From the NCBI GenBank assembly GCA_963802255.1, contig CAWDHY010000001.1, positions 107,274 to 171,273 of the forward strand: DNA of 64,000 nucleotides. Reading direction: 5' to 3'. This document shows, piece by piece, positions 4,583 through 56,612 of the stretch. The position numbers were made by a program, and so were the translations under genes. The notes under the pieces are model-generated. The model was given only the letters and a program-made list of their open reading frames with translations, was not told the origin of the DNA and ran no database searches. Source of the stretch: Candidatus Magasanikiibacteriota bacterium (GTDB lineage Bacteria; Patescibacteriota; Patescibacteriia; Magasanikbacterales; GWA2-37-8). Positions within the stretch are counted from its first letter, which is position 1, and each line of letters begins with the position of its first letter.

Positions 4583-5108
4583 ATAGAGATAAATTTAGCC
4601 GCACGTTCGCATTTATTTGTGCACTATTTTCCGCGCTTAATGAACCGGATGGTAAAAACTCAATTTTTTGGATTGATATGACATATTTATATGTTTCCAG
4701 GGCAGATAAATATTTGATCATATTAGACAGCGGACCTGACACATTTAACACAATGTCAATCCGGTTGTCGGTATAATTATCCAAATTTGAACTGACAATT
4801 TTATAAGTTACGTTATTTATTGCCGCAATGTTCTCGAAGTCTGTAATTAAGGAAAGTTCATCTCCGGTTGTGAATAAAAATTGACCGAAGCTGTCTATGC
4901 GTCCACCGACTGATTTTATCATAGCTAAACTGTCTCGCAAATTTTCAGTGCTTAAATTTCTTTTGTTTAATGACTCAATCCGGGTGGAGATAGTGTTTGA
5001 TTGAGTGCTGATTCGGTTTGAAATGTAAACTCCAGCAACAATAAGCAATATATTCGCGGTCAGCGAAATTGCGAGAAAAATAACTGTTTTTTTAACGGCG
5101 ATATTCAT
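4563..5108 (-). CDS. pilO: type IV pilus assembly protein PilO-like
   Basis: N-terminal TM helix, coiled-coil and C-terminal domain; position after pilN. Confidence 0.45.
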   Translation of the reverse strand: MNIAVKKTVIFLAISLTANILLIVAGVYISNRISTQSNTISTRIESLNKRNLSTENLRDSLAMIKSVGGRIDSFGQFLFTTGDELSLITDFENIAAINNVTYKIVSSNLDNYTDNRIDIVLNVSGPLSNMIKYLSALETYKYVISIQKIEFLPSGSLSAENSAQINANVRLNLSLYAQPTE

Positions 5109-5660
5109 TTATTTGGCGGTTAAATTATTTTCCATTTTTATCGTCAGCTGGATTTGAAATGTGACATCATTTTTTTGCAGAAGCTGGGATGTGGGCAAGT
5201 ATGTTTTTTCTACCCAAGGGAGCGCGGCTAGCCGGGCTTCATAAGCAATAAGCGCGTCTCGGGTTTTAGCCGTGCCTGGTATATTTATTGAAAAATCATT
5301 TATATCAAGAGTGATGCCTGTAATTTTTATATCCTGCGGGACTGAATTAATAATTGACCAAAAACGGGAAGTCAGCAAGCCAAAATTTTTTCCGGCAAGA
5401 TTAAGCTGCTCGGCTCGGTCATTGATTTTGCGAATTTCTTCATTATAAAATGCGTAGCGTTGGCCTGAATCCATTGATAGCTGGTTTATTATCTTAACCT
5501 GATCAAAAAATAAGAAATATATTAATCCGAGAAAACCGTCAAAAATAATTAGGATAATAAAGAGACAGCGCATAACATTGCGAATCCAGGCCGCAAAGGC
5601 GACGGTTTTGACCACTCGTCGGTCTTCGTCTTTTAAAAAATTTAGATGAATTGGCATCAT
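5109..5660 (-). CDS. pilN: type IV pilus assembly protein PilN-like
   Basis: short cytoplasmic N-terminus (binds PilM), TM helix and periplasmic domain; immediately downstream of pilM. Confidence 0.55.
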   Translation of the reverse strand: MMPIHLNFLKDEDRRVVKTVAFAAWIRNVMRCLFIILIIFDGFLGLIYFLFFDQVKIINQLSMDSGQRYAFYNEEIRKINDRAEQLNLAGKNFGLLTSRFWSIINSVPQDIKITGITLDINDFSINIPGTAKTRDALIAYEARLAALPWVEKTYLPTSQLLQKNDVTFQIQLTIKMENNLTAK

Positions 5661-5661
5661 A

Positions 5662-6753
5662 CTATTTAATAAGCGGCCATTCGGTAGCTCTCAAGGCAAG
5701 CCCGATTGCCGAAGCCATTGCCAAGCTGTCTCCCTTTTCATTATTCAAATTTGGATTAAATAAATTTTTCCACACATTACCAGGGGCGGATTCAATTTTC
5801 AGCTTGTCTGACAAAAATTTGTCCAGATTAAACATCCCGGAAAGCCCCCCGGACATAGTAATGTGAGTGACCGGGTTTGGCTCGAAGAAATGGTCGCGGT
5901 AAAAAGCTGTCGCCTGATAGATACTATCAACCAATTTTTCGCTAAGTTCAGTTATGATTTTTAAATATGCTGGATATTTGTCGCAATAGTTTAGACCGTT
6001 ATTATCTTTTAGCGCCGTTGCCGCGGCTAACTCGATTTTGAACTGCTGCATGATGGAAGTATCAATTAAATCTCCGGAAAAATTTAGTAGTGAACTGAAC
6101 TGTATGGAACCTTTGTCATAAATTATCAAGCTTGAACGGGACCCGCCCAAGTCGAGGACCGCCCTGGCTTCGCCTGAGTATTCTTTGTCTGCGGTAATCA
6201 TTGACCGAGCAATGGAGAGGTCTTCGATTTCCAAAGCTAATGGCGATAAGGAAGCTGATTTTAACAGATTTGAGTATGATTCAACAATTGTTTTCGGCGT
6301 TGCGCCGAGAAGGGCGAAGGTGGCACTGGGTTTAAGTGTTTGTCCGCGGATTATCTGCCAGTCAATATTCATTTCATTAATATCCATCGGCAAATGCTTC
6401 GCTGCTTCAAATCGTATTGTTTCGTCGCTGATTTCATTTTCCGGAGCGCTGATGCGGATTAGCTTTAGAAATGTTTTTGTAATAGGCAGGTTAGCGACTA
6501 CCCATGGCGTATGAATTGCCGGAGCGTCTTTTTGTCTGCTTAACAAAATTTTAATTTTTTCCTTGGCTAATTCAGCCTGTAAAATTTCTCCGTTTGAAAT
6601 ACAACCGGCCGGTAAAGATATCTTTCGGATATCGCGTACCGCATATCGTGGTACACGTCCAATTCTGGTTTCCTTTTCAAGGCGTACAAGTTTGAGCGAT
6701 GAATCACCGATATCAAGCCCGAAGGCGTCATTGAATGGACTATTGATAAACAT
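5662..6753 (-). CDS. pilM: type IV pilus assembly ATPase-like protein PilM (actin fold)
   Basis: actin-like ATPase motifs (LDLGGSRSSLIIYDKG, GGLSG) and operon context. Confidence 0.75.
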   Translation of the reverse strand: MFINSPFNDAFGLDIGDSSLKLVRLEKETRIGRVPRYAVRDIRKISLPAGCISNGEILQAELAKEKIKILLSRQKDAPAIHTPWVVANLPITKTFLKLIRISAPENEISDETIRFEAAKHLPMDINEMNIDWQIIRGQTLKPSATFALLGATPKTIVESYSNLLKSASLSPLALEIEDLSIARSMITADKEYSGEARAVLDLGGSRSSLIIYDKGSIQFSSLLNFSGDLIDTSIMQQFKIELAAATALKDNNGLNYCDKYPAYLKIITELSEKLVDSIYQATAFYRDHFFEPNPVTHITMSGGLSGMFNLDKFLSDKLKIESAPGNVWKNLFNPNLNNEKGDSLAMASAIGLALRATEWPLIK

Positions 6754-14314: not shown

Positions 14315-14320
14315 TGAATG

Positions 14321-14486
14321 TAGTGAAGGGAGTCGAACGGGCAGAAGCGAGACGCGAAGTTTTTGCGGAAGCAAAAACAAGTTGGCGAGAGTCGTCGGAC
14401 TGCCAGTGGCAGTCCGACGCTGCCCAGGACAAGGAGACGAGACGGTTGCGGCCGGCGAGGCGACGAGGAACTCCCCTTACCGCTCA
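14321..14486 (+). repeat. family-A tRNA-appended structured element, copy 1 (candidate ncRNA or miniature mobile element)
   Basis: roughly 80-90% identical by eye to the reverse complement of 24536-24698; 5' end gggagtcgaac is the reverse complement of the tRNA-Gly(TCC) T-loop region; 3' end ctccccttaccgctca copies the tRNA 3' end; internal hairpins show compensatory changes between copies; flanked by terminators. Confidence 0.6.
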
Positions 14487-17555: not shown

Positions 17556-17915
17556 CAAAGTTGCGAAGGGGCAGTAACCACTGCTCTTTTGTATTTGTGC
17601 CGCGCAGGGACGCTTTGCGTCCCGTAGGCGGCTAACCATGTTTTGCGTGAATCGGTTCAAGTCCGGGCCCCGCAACAAAGTTGCGAAGGGGCAGTAACCA
17701 CTGCTCTTTTGTATTTGTGCCGCGCAGGGACGCTTTGCGTCCCGTAGGCGGCTAACCATGTTTTGCGTGAATCGGTTCAAGTCCGGGCCCCGCAACAAAG
17801 TTGCGAAGGGGCAGTAACCACTGCTCTTTTGTATTTGTGCCGCGCAGGGACGCTTTGCGTCCCGTAGGCGGCTAACCATGTTTTGCGTGAATCGGTTCAA
17901 GTCCGGGCCCCGCAA
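17556..17915 (+). repeat. 3 x 120-nt tandem array; each unit is a 94-nt structured spacer plus a 26-28-nt copy of the tRNA-fMet T-loop/acceptor 3' end
   Basis: period 120 (ggttcaa at 17534, 17654, 17774, 17894); units virtually identical; internal hairpins gcagtaaccactgc and gggacgc-ttt-gcgtccc; the track ORF 17469..17918 is a translation of this repeat. Confidence 0.85.
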
Positions 17916-17958
17916 CAACTAAAAACATCTCCGCATAAGCGGAGATGTTTTTAGTTGT
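17911..17958. terminator. bidirectional terminator with a 22-bp perfect inverted repeat (caacaactaaaaacatctccgc / gcggagatgtttttagttgttg)
   Basis: long perfect stem with U-tracts on both strands; closes the tRNA array and the convergent perM-like gene. Confidence 0.6.
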
Positions 17959-24497: not shown

Positions 24498-24535
24498 CAT
24501 AAAAAAATACCCCGAAGAAAGCGGGGATTTTTTTG
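24498..24535. terminator. hairpin ccccgaagaaagcgggg with U-tracts on both strands
   Basis: 5-bp GC stem with 7-nt loop; T-run on + strand, A-run on + strand (= T-run on minus strand). Confidence 0.5.
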
Positions 24536-24698
24536 TGGTCCGGGTGGGAATTACTCGTCGTCTCGCCGACCACAATCGGCTCGACTCCTTGCCCTGGGCA
24601 GCGACGGACTGCCACGGGCAGTCCGTCGACTCTCGCCAGCTCGTTTTTGCTTCCGAAAAAACTTCGCTTCTCGCTTCTGCCCGTTCGATTCCCTCGTC
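24536..24698 (-). repeat. family-A tRNA-appended structured element, copy 2 (downstream of tRNA-Leu-TAA)
   Basis: homologous to 14321-14486; 5' end (minus strand) gggaatcgaac is the reverse complement of the tRNA-Leu(TAA) T-loop region; 3' end attcccacccggaccac at 24536-24552 copies the tRNA 3' 17 nt. Confidence 0.6.
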
Positions 24699-24699
24699 T

Positions 24700-24737
24700 G
24701 ACATTTAAAAATACGGCTCCAACAAAAATTGGAACCG
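24700..24737 (-). terminator. hairpin acggttccaa-ttttt-gttggagccgt followed by ATTTTT (minus strand)
   Basis: 10-bp stem with one mismatch, directly after tRNA-Leu. Confidence 0.5.
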
Positions 24738-37943: not shown

Positions 37944-38084
37944 AATGTATAAATTACATTACCAAAAAAGATGTCTCTTGGCAATTTGCTTTGTTAAACC
38001 CGTTTGTCGGTGCGCAGATCATAGTTCATTTCCCGGTGAAATAAAAAAACAAGCCCAGGCATAAAGCCGGAACTTATTTTTTAG

Positions 38085-38156
38085 GGCGACTACTGGGAAT
38101 TGAACCCAGGTATCTGGTGCCACAAACCGGTGTTCTACCATTGAACTATAGCCGCC
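38085..38156 (-). tRNA. tRNA-His (anticodon GTG) with encoded G-1
   Basis: extra 5' G opposite the discriminator C; anticodon loop UUGUGGC; T-loop TTCAATT. Confidence 0.85.
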
Positions 38157-42258: not shown

Positions 42259-42295
42259 AATACAACGGGCTAACGCCCGTTGTATTGATTTATAG
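42259..42295 (+). terminator. hairpin tacaacgggc-taa-cgcccgttgta followed by TTGATTTAT
   Basis: 11-bp stem after the pnp stop. Confidence 0.5.
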
Positions 42296-42313
42296 AGGAT
42301 TTTGTGTTATATT
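42285..42313 (+). promoter_or_regulatory. candidate promoter for tRNA-Leu(TAG) (TTGATT, 17-nt spacer, TATATT)
   Basis: sequence match; overlaps the 3' side of the pnp terminator. Confidence 0.35.
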
Positions 42314-42322
42314 GTGCTGTAC

Positions 42323-42406
42323 GCCGGGGTGGTGAAATTGGTAGACACGCAGGCCTTAGGAGCCTGTTCCCGCAAGGGATTGGAGGTTCGAGTCCTCTCT
42401 CCGGCA
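42323..42406 (+). tRNA. tRNA-Leu (anticodon TAG)
   Basis: long variable arm; anticodon loop CUUAGGA; T-loop TTCGAGT; acceptor GCCGGGG/CTCCGGC. Confidence 0.85.
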
Positions 42407-42436
42407 CAAAACGAGCCAATAGTTTGGCTCGTTTTT
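42407..42436 (+). terminator. hairpin aacgagcc-aatagtt-tggctcgtt followed by TTTT
   Basis: 9-bp stem plus U-tract right after the tRNA. Confidence 0.55.
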
Positions 42437-42556
42437 AGGACGAGAACGCCGGAGCGATGTTTGACGAACTTGCAGGTGAGGCAAACCGCGAGGCGGTGAC
42501 TAGCCCGAGTAGGCGGAAGCCAACGAGAGGCGAGGTCGAGTCCTCTCCCCGGCACC
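42437..42556 (+). repeat. family-B tRNA-appended structured element, copy 1 (downstream of tRNA-Leu-TAG)
   Basis: shares cores acgccggagcgatgt and accgcgaggcggtg(a/g)ctag with the element at 56351-56506 (minus strand); 3' end ggtcgagtcctctccccggcacca at 42534-42556 copies the tRNA 3' end; 5' end aggac-gagaac resembles an inverted T-arm. Confidence 0.55.
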
Positions 42557-42577: not shown

Positions 42578-42606
42578 AAAAATGGCCGTAATGGTCATTT
42601 TTATTT
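42578..42606 (+). terminator. weak hairpin (atggcc/ggtcat) flanked by A-tracts and T-tracts
   Basis: imperfect stem with TTTTTATTTT downstream. Confidence 0.3.
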
Positions 42607-42710
42607 TGTGAGTCACGGGGACTTGACCTATTCGTTAATTTGTAGTATAGTTTGAGGTTCAAGAAAGTAGAAAGTTGGCTGAAAAACGTTCTTTAACAAA
42701 GGAGAAAGCG

Positions 42711-43268
42711 ATGCAAAAAGCATTATTTTTATTCATATTCGCCATGTTTGTCGGCTGTGGGGCATCTGACCGTTTTGAAGTGATTGATGGTGGTGGTAGT
42801 GATTCTGACTCGGATAACGACACCGACACAGACACCGACACAGACACCGACACAGACACAGACACCGACACAGACACCGACACAGACACCGACACCGAGA
42901 CGGAGACTGAGGCTGATGCTGGCCCTCAGACGTGTGAAACGGCTTCTGACTGCGATGAAGACGAGGTCTGTGGTTATGAAACGCAAACTTGCTATCTGCA
43001 GCCAGAGCCCGGTGCGGACCAGTATTGGTACTGCTGGGATGATGGTCCGGACAGCGAAGGCCCTAGCTGTGACTCCTTTGATTTCGGCGGTTGCGATTAT
43101 TGGTCGCCAGAGGAGTGGCATTGGACCGATGTCCATCCCGCTTGCGGCTCTAACTATCCGCCGCCAGCTTGCCCGACGCATTATCCGACCACTCCAGCCT
43201 GTTGCCTCAAAAACAACGGTGAGGATGAGGACTGCATCGGCCAGGCCTTTTTTCCCCCTATTGTATAG
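42711..43268 (+). CDS. acidic Cys-rich lipoprotein with a (DT)12-(ET)2 repeat; GC-rich and compositionally atypical
   Basis: SD AAGGAG 6 nt upstream of ATG 42711 (the track start is 42675); lipobox FVGC|G; 18 Cys; local GC well above the window background. Confidence 0.55.
   Translation: MQKALFLFIFAMFVGCGASDRFEVIDGGGSDSDSDNDTDTDTDTDTDTDTDTDTDTDTDTDTETETEADAGPQTCETASDCDEDEVCGYETQTCYLQPEPGADQYWYCWDDGPDSEGPSCDSFDFGGCDYWSPEEWHWTDVHPACGSNYPPPACPTHYPTTPACCLKNNGEDEDCIGQAFFPPIV
42819..42902 (+). repeat. hexanucleotide simple-sequence repeat (GACACN)n encoding (DT)12
   Basis: gacaccgacaca... tract inside the lipoprotein gene. Confidence 0.9.
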
Positions 43269-43413: not shown

Positions 43414-43769
43414 GTGCCTACGATTAAAACCCCTTTGGGGACCACGTCCAATCTCATGGATACAAATCGTATCCGCCTGGACCTCTGGGTAAGACTTTTA
43501 CTCAATTGTAAAAGACAGGTAATGTTAACCATTATCAAACAACTCAAATCTTACTCATAGTATCCAAGCGGTTCAAACTCACAAAAATTGAGTCGCTTGT
43601 CGCGGCTCATTTTTTTATCTCACACTCCGGCCAATATATTGGCAGGAGCAATGAGACAAGAAATGGATTGCACGTTGACAATTTAAATAGTTCAACAAAA
43701 AAAGCAGATTTATATCTGCTGGGTAGAACGCAACAAAACACTGTTTGGTGTTTTCGTTGTGTGCAATTT

Positions 43770-46870
<3,101 letters not shown>

Positions 46871-46957
46871 AAGTAGTGTTTTCTCACAGAATTTTCTGTT
46901 TTACAATTGAACTATATATTAAATCCGACCAGTGTCGGAACGAACTGAGTACAGAGT

Positions 46958-47064
46958 TCAGGTGCCTTAAGCGACAGGGTCACACCCGATCCCATCCCGA
47001 ACTCGGCAGTTAAGCCTGTCAGCGCCGATGATAGCGTGACCCGCAAAAGTAGGCCGGCGCCTGA
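46958..47064 (+). rRNA. rrf: 5S ribosomal RNA
   Basis: helix I tcaggtgcc/ggcgcctga; internal cccatcccgaactcggcagttaagc; flanked by a long processing stem gaactgagtacagagttcagg/cctgaaccttgtactcagtt. Confidence 0.8.
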
Positions 47065-47188
47065 ACCTTGTACTCAGTTTTTTTGTACCTGTACATAAGA
47101 ATAAATGACGCCGGTCGCTTCTAAGATGAATGCTTCATTTTTTAGCAAGAAAATGATAAAATAGACATATAAATTAACCCGCAAATAT

Positions 47189-56281: not shown

Positions 56282-56350
56282 CATCTTTAATTATTTGGTC
56301 GCTTCGCCCCAACAAAACAAAAAAGCCCCCAAAGGGGTTCTTTTGTTTTT

Positions 56351-56506
56351 GTGGGTCGCCAGGGATTCGGCTTCAACTAAAATTTTCTTCCAAAAATTTT
56401 GTCTAGCCACCGCCTCGCGGTCGCGCTCGCTCTTTTGCATCGCGCGACATCGCTCCGGCGTCCGAATCCCTGTCGCGACCAAAACTGTTTGGTCGCTTCG
56501 CCCAAA
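56351..56506 (-). repeat. family-B tRNA-appended structured element, copy 2 (downstream of tRNA-Lys-CTT)
   Basis: minus-strand 3' end ccgaatccctggcgacccac (56351-56370) copies the tRNA-Lys 3' 20 nt exactly; 5' end cagggattcggac is an inverted copy of the Lys T-arm; family-B core motifs; the box tttggtcgcttcgccc plus a terminator module is duplicated at 56294-56345 and 56488-56537. Confidence 0.55.
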
Positions 56507-56539
56507 CAAAAAAATCCCTGACGGGACTTTTTTGTTTTG

Positions 56540-56612
56540 TGGGTCGCCAGGGATTCGGACCCTGGACCTTGTCCTTAAGAGGGACCTGCTCTACCAACTG
56601 AGCTAGCGACCC
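56540..56612 (-). tRNA. tRNA-Lys (anticodon CTT)
   Basis: cloverleaf; anticodon loop CUCUUAA; T-loop TCCGAAT; acceptor GGGTCGC/GCGACCC. Confidence 0.85.

Follow-up and report, generated by a model that had tools for sequence, protein, structure and literature searches.

Immediately 3' of the tRNA-Leu(TAG) gene in a 64,000-nt stretch of a Candidatus Magasanikiibacteriota genome (GenBank assembly GCA_963802255.1, contig CAWDHY010000001.1, positions 107,274 to 171,273 of the forward strand; hereafter the window, with coordinates counted from its first letter), we detected a small cassette in which a structured core lies between an inverted and a direct copy of parts of the neighbouring tRNA. Cassettes of its class, ~120–190 nt long and encoding no protein, are located 3' of tRNA genes across the Patescibacteria. 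The host tRNA gene (42323..42407, +), called by ARAGORN and Rfam, encodes no CCA and has a G6-U67 pair in its acceptor stem; it is preceded by the sole promoter-like site 5' of the cassette on this strand (42285..42313, +; TTGATT-17-TATATT with TG). Directly behind the tRNA lies the conserved first hairpin of the cassette, H1 (42408..42436, +; AAAACGAGCCAA-TAGT-TTGGCTCGTTTT followed by T), which in this copy also resembles an intrinsic terminator. The original prediction read these positions as a separate terminator and started the element at 42437; H1 is instead part of the cassette itself, which begins at ~42408, because the orthologous locus L041 carries a covarying H1 with a different compensating stem and no T-run. 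H1 has a T5 tail in the Leu copy and none in L041, the terminator scan did not call it, and a CAATAGTTTG-type hairpin is present also in loci L035, L132, and L166.

H1 is followed by a 5' arm and junction (42437..42446, +; AGGAC plus GAGAA), where AGGAC is the reverse complement of the T-stem 3' strand and, at 42437-42441, pairs with GTCCT at 42540-42544 inside the cassette. The first core hairpin, P2 (42447..42495, +), combines a conserved base, interrupted by internal loops, with a distal stem that covaries (CGCC-GGA-GCG-AU-[GUUUG...CAAAC]-CGC-GA-GGCG; on the DNA, CGCCGGAGCGATG ... CCGCGAGGCGG), and after GTG comes the second, P3 (42498..42537, +), in which a variable stem, CCCGAGUAGGC-GGAA-GCCAACGAGAGG, with tandem G-A pairs, a GNRA loop, and a K-turn-like bulge is set between GACUAG and CGAGGUC. 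The cassette closes with the direct tRNA copy TCGAGTCCTCTCCCCGGCAC (42536..42555, +), which runs from the T-loop to one position past the discriminator with a single mismatch (C where the gene has T). The near-copy of the tRNA tail that had originally drawn attention, GGTCGAGTCCTCTCCCCGGCAC at 42534-42555, does correspond to the last 22 nt of the tRNA with two mismatches, true identity beginning in the T-loop at 42536. CA then completes a CCA (to 42557) that is missing from the tRNA gene. The further terminator that had been placed 3' of the copy is visible by eye as a T-run hairpin (42578..42606, +), the putative terminator of a tRNA-plus-cassette unit, but the terminator scan made no call there.

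The window holds a second whole cassette with the same core, which we call family B, so that copies lie at 42408-42556 (+) and 56351-56503 (−), both 3' of a tRNA on its own strand. The second host, tRNA-Lys(CTT) (56539..56612, −; ARAGORN, Rfam), is separated from the cassette arms by a terminator-like hairpin between an A-tract and a T-tract (56504..56538, −). Behind it are an acceptor-5'-like GGGCGA, H1 (AGCGACCAAACAGTTTTGGTCGCG), and a 5' arm (ACAGGGATTCGG) that is the reverse complement of the T-loop and T-stem 3' strand (together 56462..56503, −), then the P2 and P3 core (56372..56461, −), and finally the direct copy of the tRNA-Lys 3' end, GCCGAATCCCTGGCGACCCAC (56351..56371, −). A second terminator-like hairpin and the truncated start of another unit (GGGGCGAAGCGACCAAA; 56294..56350, −) repeat the sequence found 3' of tRNA-Lys itself. 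The two short cores common to both loci, ACGCCGGAGCGATGT and ACCGCGAGGCGGTGNCTAG, occur at exactly two sites each in 64 kb (42446 and 42485 on the plus strand, 56447 and 56403 on the minus strand), and none of 100 shuffles gave two matches. Homology between the copies extends beyond these motifs, as both share a covarying three-way junction throughout, and a covariance model built from 69 members (R1) scores them at 95.8 and 98.7 bits with no other match in the window. The fold z-score of the Leu copy is -1.2 without H1 and -3.7 with it, whereas that of the Lys copy is -6.6; the Leu core alone folds so weakly because its closing helix, P1, has only 5 bp. We consider the resemblance of the Leu and Lys loci confirmed as real and far beyond chance.

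Outside the window, a scan of one genome per species for the pattern CGCCGGAGCGAT-N15-40-CCGCGAGGCGG recovered at least 118 loci, a lower bound, and the family B fractions given here are among the matches listed in that scan. Nearly all of these loci carry Patescibacteria record titles, including Magasanik-, Uhr-, Kuenen-, Komeili-, Kaiser-, Yanofsky-, Ryan-, Taylor-, Adler-, and Moraniibacteria, Paceibacterota, and Saccharibacteria; some co-assembly metagenome-assembled genomes (MAGs) bear the nominal title 'uncultured Gammaproteobacteria'. A same-strand tRNA lies within 350 nt upstream in 89 of the 118 listed loci, usually at a distance of 27–110 nt and covering 18 amino-acid types, and in 75 of these 89 the last 18 nt of the host tRNA recur ~40–70 nt after the second core (up to four errors allowed, most copies being exact). 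A handful of matches without a tRNA in high-GC Actinobacteria and Myxococcota were rejected as members, since the covariance model gave them no or only a marginal match, and are attributed to chance. Genome-scale core search, tabulation of neighbouring tRNAs, and covariance analysis found both tRNA linkage and covariation. The cores are not the generic repeats that the original prediction had allowed for, being tRNA-linked in most listed loci, and statistics over 75 independent loci bear out the architecture it described (an inverted arm, a family core, and the cognate tRNA end in direct copy).

The arms are specific to the tRNA beside which they lie. In family B, the T-loop and T-stem 3' strand of the host tRNA recur as their reverse complement in the 5' arm, and the 11 nt before the junction form a mean contiguous helix of 5.8 nt with their own tail versus 3.8 nt with non-cognate tails, a value equalled in 0 of 5000 permutations (this contiguous-helix test took the place of an RNAduplex arm-tail test that was too noisy). 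The inverted, T-arm-like 5' end thus holds across the family, though it is short (5 bp) in the Leu copy. By reaching T54 through the GAA of the junction, which is nearly invariant (at least 90% conserved), the inverted arm is in general at least as complementary to the genuine tRNA as to the distal copy: across the 75 loci the genuine T-loop was the better partner in 20, the worse in 1, and equal in 54. A complement to the acceptor 5' strand, located 5' of H1, is found in a minority of members only, and this weaker effect was likewise reached in 0 of 5000 permutations. Between the tRNA and the arm there is a GAACGAAGTGA leader in 21 of 75 loci, a terminator-like hairpin in 22, and neither in 32, with H1 coming next.

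The direct repeat is exactly identical over 17–21 nt (mode 19), from G57/A58 in the T-loop to the discriminator, and ends 0–1 nt from the tRNA end in 50 of 75 loci. As in att scars, a direct tRNA 3' repeat hence flanks the insert, here ~19 nt from G57/A58 to N73(+1). The repeat runs on for 20–80 nt in ~8 loci (L007, L011, L022, L038, L046, and L089 among them) because whole units are tandemly repeated, and at the Lys locus of the window the terminator and the start of H1 likewise recur after the copy. CCA is encoded in 19 of 75 copies versus 13 of 75 genes, in the copy only at nine loci and in the gene only at three. As a mark of an RNA intermediate this modest excess of CCA is not informative: encoded CCA shows no correlation with cassette presence (p = 0.28), and the CCA in the window is one substitution from the CAA of its ortholog. 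The fit to the tRNA 5' strand is likewise uninformative on whether the distal copy is the original tRNA end: the proximal copy suits that strand better in 11 of 11 loci with differing acceptor strands, and selection on a working tRNA predicts the same.

RNAalifold applied to an alignment of 69 members (A1) folds the cassette into a three-way junction, in which P1 joins the 5' arm to the start of the direct copy, P2 has the consensus CGCC-GGA-GCG-AU-[variable stem]-C-CGC-GA-GGCG, and P3 has the consensus GSCYAG-[variable stem]-CGARGSC. Both sides have changed with pairing kept at 16 of 25 base pairs, and 94.2% of cells pair compared with 33–45% when partners are slid by one to three columns; the covariation score of 0.456 stands against no more than 0.14 in controls, and no shuffle scored as high. 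The search pattern made the base of P2 invariant in A1, but the extra copies found by R1 covary there too (UGGC/GCCA, and GCU/AGC in L061). P3 occurs in a few interchangeable versions, among them a fully Watson-Crick stem and one in which tandem G-A pairs are combined with a GGAA loop and a 3-nt bulge resembling a K-turn. Non-canonical cells are lopsided, with 28 G-U versus 7 A-C and 81 G-A versus 2 C-U, which indicates that the fold is formed by a single-stranded sense strand, whether RNA or DNA, and is not a feature of double-stranded DNA. A single-strand structure is under selection. Two other accounts of the core were discarded. The ATG in core 1 opens 34 codons in the Leu copy, but the Lys frame stops at a conserved CTAG, and there is no conserved reading frame because the length classes of P2 differ by non-multiples of three and shift the frame past the conserved ATG. 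An origin from 5S rRNA, suggested by the slight likeness of the leader and core 1 to the E. coli 5S, also failed: the 5S of the window (46958-47065) shares only a GCGCCGATG-like stretch, and the cassette has no Rfam 5S match.

The same arms carry other cores. We screened every tRNA in the fetched loci for a downstream copy of its own tail, which returned 69 family B cases together with at least four other, unrelated cores (A, C, D, and E). Family A was found in the window and in L022, where A and then B stand in tandem behind one tRNA-Asp; family C in L021, L064 (two copies), L086, and L117, ending in CCUGUACUGAACAUGUAAUG and then the full T-loop; family D in L063 (two copies); and family E in L060. 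Each has a T-stem complement and a TCGAA junction at its 5' side and the tRNA tail at its 3' side. The proposal that several core families share one architecture is in this way both supported and extended. The claim that A is unrelated to B is borne out for the core, which differs and is not detected by R1, but the two share a GAAYGNAGTGA leader and the TCGAA junction and are therefore not wholly independent in design. Scans against Rfam matched none of the core families: at Rfam 15 gathering thresholds the window yielded only tRNA, 23S, and 5S, both family B loci gave only tRNA and noise of at most 22 bits at E values up to 10, and loci with A, C, D, and E cores gave no match even at permissive thresholds. 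Neither ARAGORN nor Rfam called a cassette as a tRNA or tRNA-like, the core standing in place of the T-loop.

An appendage of this kind is present at 5 of 11 tRNAs in the window. tRNA-Gly(TCC) and tRNA-Leu(TAA) each have a family A cassette behind them (~14316-14480, +, and ~24535-24703, −), with the core CGGGCAGAAG...GCTGCCCAG and the same arm logic. Behind tRNA-Met(CAT) there are three exact 120-bp tandem units (17557-17916, +), each with a terminator-like hairpin, a second GC-rich hairpin, and an end equal to the last ~24 nt of the tRNA including the whole T-loop; the acceptor complement TTGCGAAGGGGC lies directly 3' of each tRNA-Met end. Downstream of tRNA-His (38084-38155), CACCGGGAAATGAAC (~38030-38050, −) looks like the tRNA-His T-loop and T-stem 3' strand in reverse complement and has no distal copy; perhaps this is a solo arm or a decayed one.

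L041, from a Magasanikbacteria MAG, preserves the order PNPase, tRNA-Leu(TAG), cassette, with PNPase ~81% identical; relative to the window the cassette is conserved, the intergenic flanks cannot be aligned, and P3 has been swapped for its other version. We sampled the orthologous site further by a metagenome scan on PNPase, which gave 72 relatives, ~40 of them with tRNA-Leu(TAG) downstream. Most of these ~40 syntenic contigs have only the tRNA and a terminator, full family B cassettes are present in L132, L166, and L124, and internally deleted remnants are present in L145 and L171. At this single orthologous site the cassette is thus patchily distributed, with decay of some of its copies. Similarity of the variable cores was 0.77 between different tRNAs of the same genome (0.82–0.91 in four of six pairs), 0.63 between different genomes at the same tRNA, and 0.60 in the background. 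Cores, or modules within them, are thus exchanged or homogenised among tRNA loci, the arms staying tRNA-specific. Tandem or mixed arrays were found in L022, L011, and L046, and in L061 five tRNAs within 4 kb each have a family B cassette behind them. At L047 (7133-7345, −) the tRNA is internally deleted, 16 nt of its 5' end being joined to its last ~6 nt; the promoter, the terminator, and an intact family B cassette (105 bits) are retained.

Other rearrangements were observed at these tRNAs. L130 has a 5'-truncated second tRNA-Leu(TAG) with another acceptor sequence ~60 nt after the intact one (~4680-4790), and the distal copy of the L171 remnant has this other acceptor sequence. In L021 (819-3800), an IS30-like transposase (HTH_38 and rve) and two open reading frames (ORFs) for membrane or secreted proteins lie between a family C and a family B cassette; both cassettes carry tRNA-Leu(TAG) tail copies, so a later insertion has split the array. 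L004 (5457-6149, +) has a 230-aa ORF between tRNA-Glu and a family B cassette, with a helix-turn-helix-like N-terminal region, no Pfam match, and a motif, LYWGEGYK, that recalls LAGLIDADG endonucleases; relatives occur at other positions in L050, L101, and L117.

No protein is tied to the cassettes. Clustering of ORFs of at least 120 aa from the 118 listed loci gave no cluster present in more than 10 loci, and the top recurrent neighbours, the CCA-adding enzyme and UPF0102/YraN, reflect synteny because they co-occur with one tRNA cluster (Arg-TCG / Gly-GCC / Pro). The order CCA-adding enzyme, tRNA-Arg(TCG), tRNA-Gly(GCC), UPF0102/YraN, tRNA-Pro was seen in L005, L026, L032, L036, L052, L061, L097, and L101, with cassettes behind several of its tRNAs. 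We found no recombinase in or beside cassettes beyond chance or synteny, the sole transposase being the separate IS30-like insertion in L021. The two-core pattern had 0 matches on viral contigs, and carriage by phages or plasmids was rejected, as the 102 and 17 viral loci matching single-core patterns include none recognised by R1 and are attributed to chance.

Several neighbouring features stand apart from the cassettes. The ORF directly 3' of the Leu copy (42675-43268, +) is predicted to encode a lipoprotein-like protein containing a long (Asp-Thr)n run and has a 46%-identical relative in L001. At 43760-47065 (+), a 23S rRNA spanning 3102 nt, compared with the 2925-nt model (insertions), is followed by the 5S with no adjoining 16S (an unlinked rRNA operon). 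The Saccharibacteria-titled L117 has Rfam matches to group II intron D1-D4 (6158-6576, −), one above its gathering score (45.1 vs 35 bits) and one below (27.8 vs 49 bits), and L086 has a group I intron (5372-5608, −). Group I introns in tRNAs of Patescibacteria, and the absence of group II introns from them, have been reported (PMC13011429).

We tentatively favour, at a probability of roughly 40%, the reading that these are accessory or selfish cassettes that are co-transcribed with the tRNA as a structured trailer and multiply by recombination at the duplicated tRNA end. Without a promoter of its own, the cassette would be transcribed as a 3' trailer on the tRNA's primary transcript, and the formation of P1 would hide an arm that is otherwise antisense to the tRNA's own T-arm. 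The trailer RNA would take up a compact, nuclease-resistant fold ending exactly like a tRNA, ordinary tRNA 3'-end machinery could set its end, and a processed, stable RNA may result from that tRNA-like end. The core of such an RNA might bind a protein or a tRNA. At the DNA level, the duplicated tRNA segment would permit tandem amplification, clean loss, and horizontal replacement via homologous recombination, and the conserved junctions would let cores or sub-modules swap between the tRNA loci of one genome with arms matched to the local tRNA. Co-transcription itself is plausible from the arrangement of the loci: we found no promoter-like site between tRNA and cassette, a terminator-like hairpin intervenes in only 22 of 75 loci, and at L047 a cassette is kept behind the tRNA promoter.

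Two kinds of known element come close to the cassettes. tRNA-like modules such as MALAT1 mascRNA, viral tRNA-like ends, engineered tRNA scaffolds, and trailers from the 3' external transcribed spacer (3'ETS) have a tRNA-type end or are excised from a tRNA precursor, and a subset of cassettes shares with them an acceptor-like stem and a T-stem-like helix around a cargo. The cassettes differ in having no T-loop, D arm, or anticodon arm, no Rfam tRNA match, and mostly no acceptor pairing, and their stems copy the adjacent tRNA rather than a generic one. Miniature inverted-repeat transposable elements (MITEs) and repetitive extragenic palindrome (REP)-like repeats (Correia, RUP, and BIME) are likewise small, non-coding, and multi-copy, with inverted-repeat flanks, hairpins, and clustering by genome, and such repeats are often transcribed. 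The cassettes match them in size, lack of coding capacity, copy number, and related copies within a genome. MITEs have terminal repeats that are constant within a family, whereas the constant terminal inverted repeats are absent here: cassette arms differ between copies and change with the neighbouring tRNA, the right arm is the flank repeat, and the location is exclusively at tRNA 3' ends.

Several observations weigh against a co-transcribed trailer. The covariation and the bias towards G-U and G-A suit a folded sense-strand DNA just as well as an RNA, and 29% of cassettes, the Lys copy of the window included, lie behind a good terminator-like hairpin. With the acceptor complement so scarce, most members would have no tRNA-like acceptor stem and a single-stranded 3' tail, which weakens the idea that they are processed like a tRNA. 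Patchy occupancy and decay speak against an important host function, and how an arm is matched to a new tRNA is left unexplained.

Less probable, yet the most substantial competitor, is a miniature integrative DNA element in which the folded sense single-stranded DNA, through the duplex of arm and copy, mimics the T-loop-to-acceptor target in the tRNA gene and is used by a recombinase acting in trans; strand exchange with the tRNA gene would leave the order tRNA, arm, core, copy of the tRNA end. The integron attC and the CTX-phage attP(+) used by XerCD are imperfect one-strand hairpins of ~120 nt whose stem recreates a duplex recombination partner, with conservation of structure. Cassettes are likewise one-strand hairpins with a partner-like stem, a variable apex, and conservation of structure over sequence, but they have no associated integrase, integron platform, or ORF cargo, and their stem is that of the local tRNA, not R/L boxes or dif. 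Their geometry and strand bias fit such a site, and an RNA explains both equally. An element of this sort accounts for an identity block sharply bounded from the T-loop to the tRNA end, as in classical tRNA att sites, for unrelated cores on the same arm logic and different families stacked at one tRNA (L022, L021), for patchy occupancy and decayed copies, for a strand-specific fold that tolerates G-T and G-A, for the terminators ahead of 29% of cassettes, which would be odd for an RNA gene, and for cores that group by genome. It is weakened by the lack of a phage-borne recombinase, of one in or near the loci beyond chance or synteny, and of cassettes on viral contigs, and by a GNRA loop, a K-turn-like bulge, and a long-range three-way junction that are more RNA-like. 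The poorer fit of the distal copy to the tRNA 5' strand in 11 of 11 differing loci (e.g., L050) also counts against it, though decay predicts the same, and insertion into a non-cognate tRNA would wreck that tRNA, so retargeting is left unexplained here as well.

A more speculative possibility, to which we give a low probability, is a protein-less mobile system that bears its own guide: the inverted arm would select a particular tRNA gene 3' end, or a tRNA, by base pairing, and arm and tail would be re-templated on the new tRNA with each move of a core, by host enzymes only. It would account for the service of one core to almost every tRNA species and for cores that are alike within a genome although each arm fits its own tRNA. 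Its basis is the question of how arms come to match a new tRNA, the most interesting point that the cassettes raise.

We rate slightly lower again a riboregulator acting on tRNA in cis or trans, in which the arm and GAA are antisense to T54-N66 of the cognate tRNA and the internal copy masks the arm until an unfolded, unmodified, or fragmented cognate tRNA displaces the copy through a UUC/GAA toehold, allowing the cassette to sense or sponge defective tRNAs or 3' fragments. The arm does complement the genuine T-loop as well as or better than the copy (20 better, 1 worse, and 54 ties), the GAA is at least 90% conserved, and the tRNA-specific copy of ~19 nt is the size of a 3' tRNA fragment. This is argued from sequence alone; GAGAA variants, the Leu copy of the window among them, lose complementarity to G57-A58, and patchiness and decay speak against a needed quality-control role.

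It is very unlikely that the cassettes are scars of integrase islands whose interior was lost, leaving attL and attR. Integrative elements normally leave partial repeats of the tRNA 3' end (PMC9897764; 10.1101/2020.12.28.424599), partial tRNAs arise from island integration (PMC9897764), and L130 and L021 show that insertions have been received at this tRNA region. With phages, integrative and conjugative elements, and tycheposons that use tRNA genes the cassettes share a direct tRNA 3' repeat, tandem accretion, and patchy occupancy (PMC9897764; 10.1101/2020.12.28.424599). They differ in being ~100–170-nt inserts with a conserved structured core and no integrase or ORF, in adding an inverted copy of a tRNA segment, and in having a single core family spread over at least 18 tRNA types. 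Random deletions would not repeatedly leave a conserved, covarying 100-nt interior at 18 tRNA types in more than 100 genomes, and the inverted tRNA-specific arm and missing integrase leave this explanation largely refuted.

Marginally less likely still is the product of a tRNA-primed retroelement, with the arm as the analogue of a primer-binding site, templated anew on whichever tRNA was used, and the A58 boundary as a reverse-transcriptase stop at m1A58. The left boundary at G57/A58, the excess of loci with CCA in the copy only (9) over those with it in the gene only (3), and tRNA-specific arms on genome-specific cores are what such a product would give, and like the primer-binding sites of retroviruses and long terminal repeat (LTR) elements the arm complements a specific tRNA 3' portion with a boundary near A58. 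The arm covers T54-N66, however, and not the 3'-terminal 18 nt; there are no LTRs and no linked reverse transcriptase, the window CCA is one base from the CAA of its ortholog, and no consistent reaction scheme could be built. Chance resemblance or mere terminator sequence, suggested by the terminator-like H1 and downstream hairpin, is refuted by the core counts, tRNA linkage, arm specificity, and covariance, and we give it practically no weight.

We found no description of these cassettes in Rfam or in the openly searchable literature (subscription-only literature lay outside the search); the nearest published items concern group I introns in Patescibacteria tRNAs (PMC13011429) and the partial tRNAs of island integration (PMC9897764). 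We place the cassettes outside known kinds because none of the known systems compared here joins a conserved structured core with inverted and direct arms of whichever tRNA lies beside it. Their ~19-nt tRNA-end copies can confuse the annotation of tRNAs and att sites in Patescibacteria genomes. These genomes are ~1 Mb in size with little spare DNA, yet cassettes can stand behind up to about half of a stretch's tRNA genes (5 of 11 in the window and 5 of 5 in L061). Should the cassettes be RNAs, a major bacterial radiation would have a large class of tRNA-linked non-coding RNAs that has gone unrecognised. As DNA elements, they would target tRNA genes without a linked recombinase and with the specificity in their own arms, which would be of interest for mobile elements and possibly for programmable insertion; were the arms true guides, this would be a new form of programmable insertion targeting by host enzymes only.

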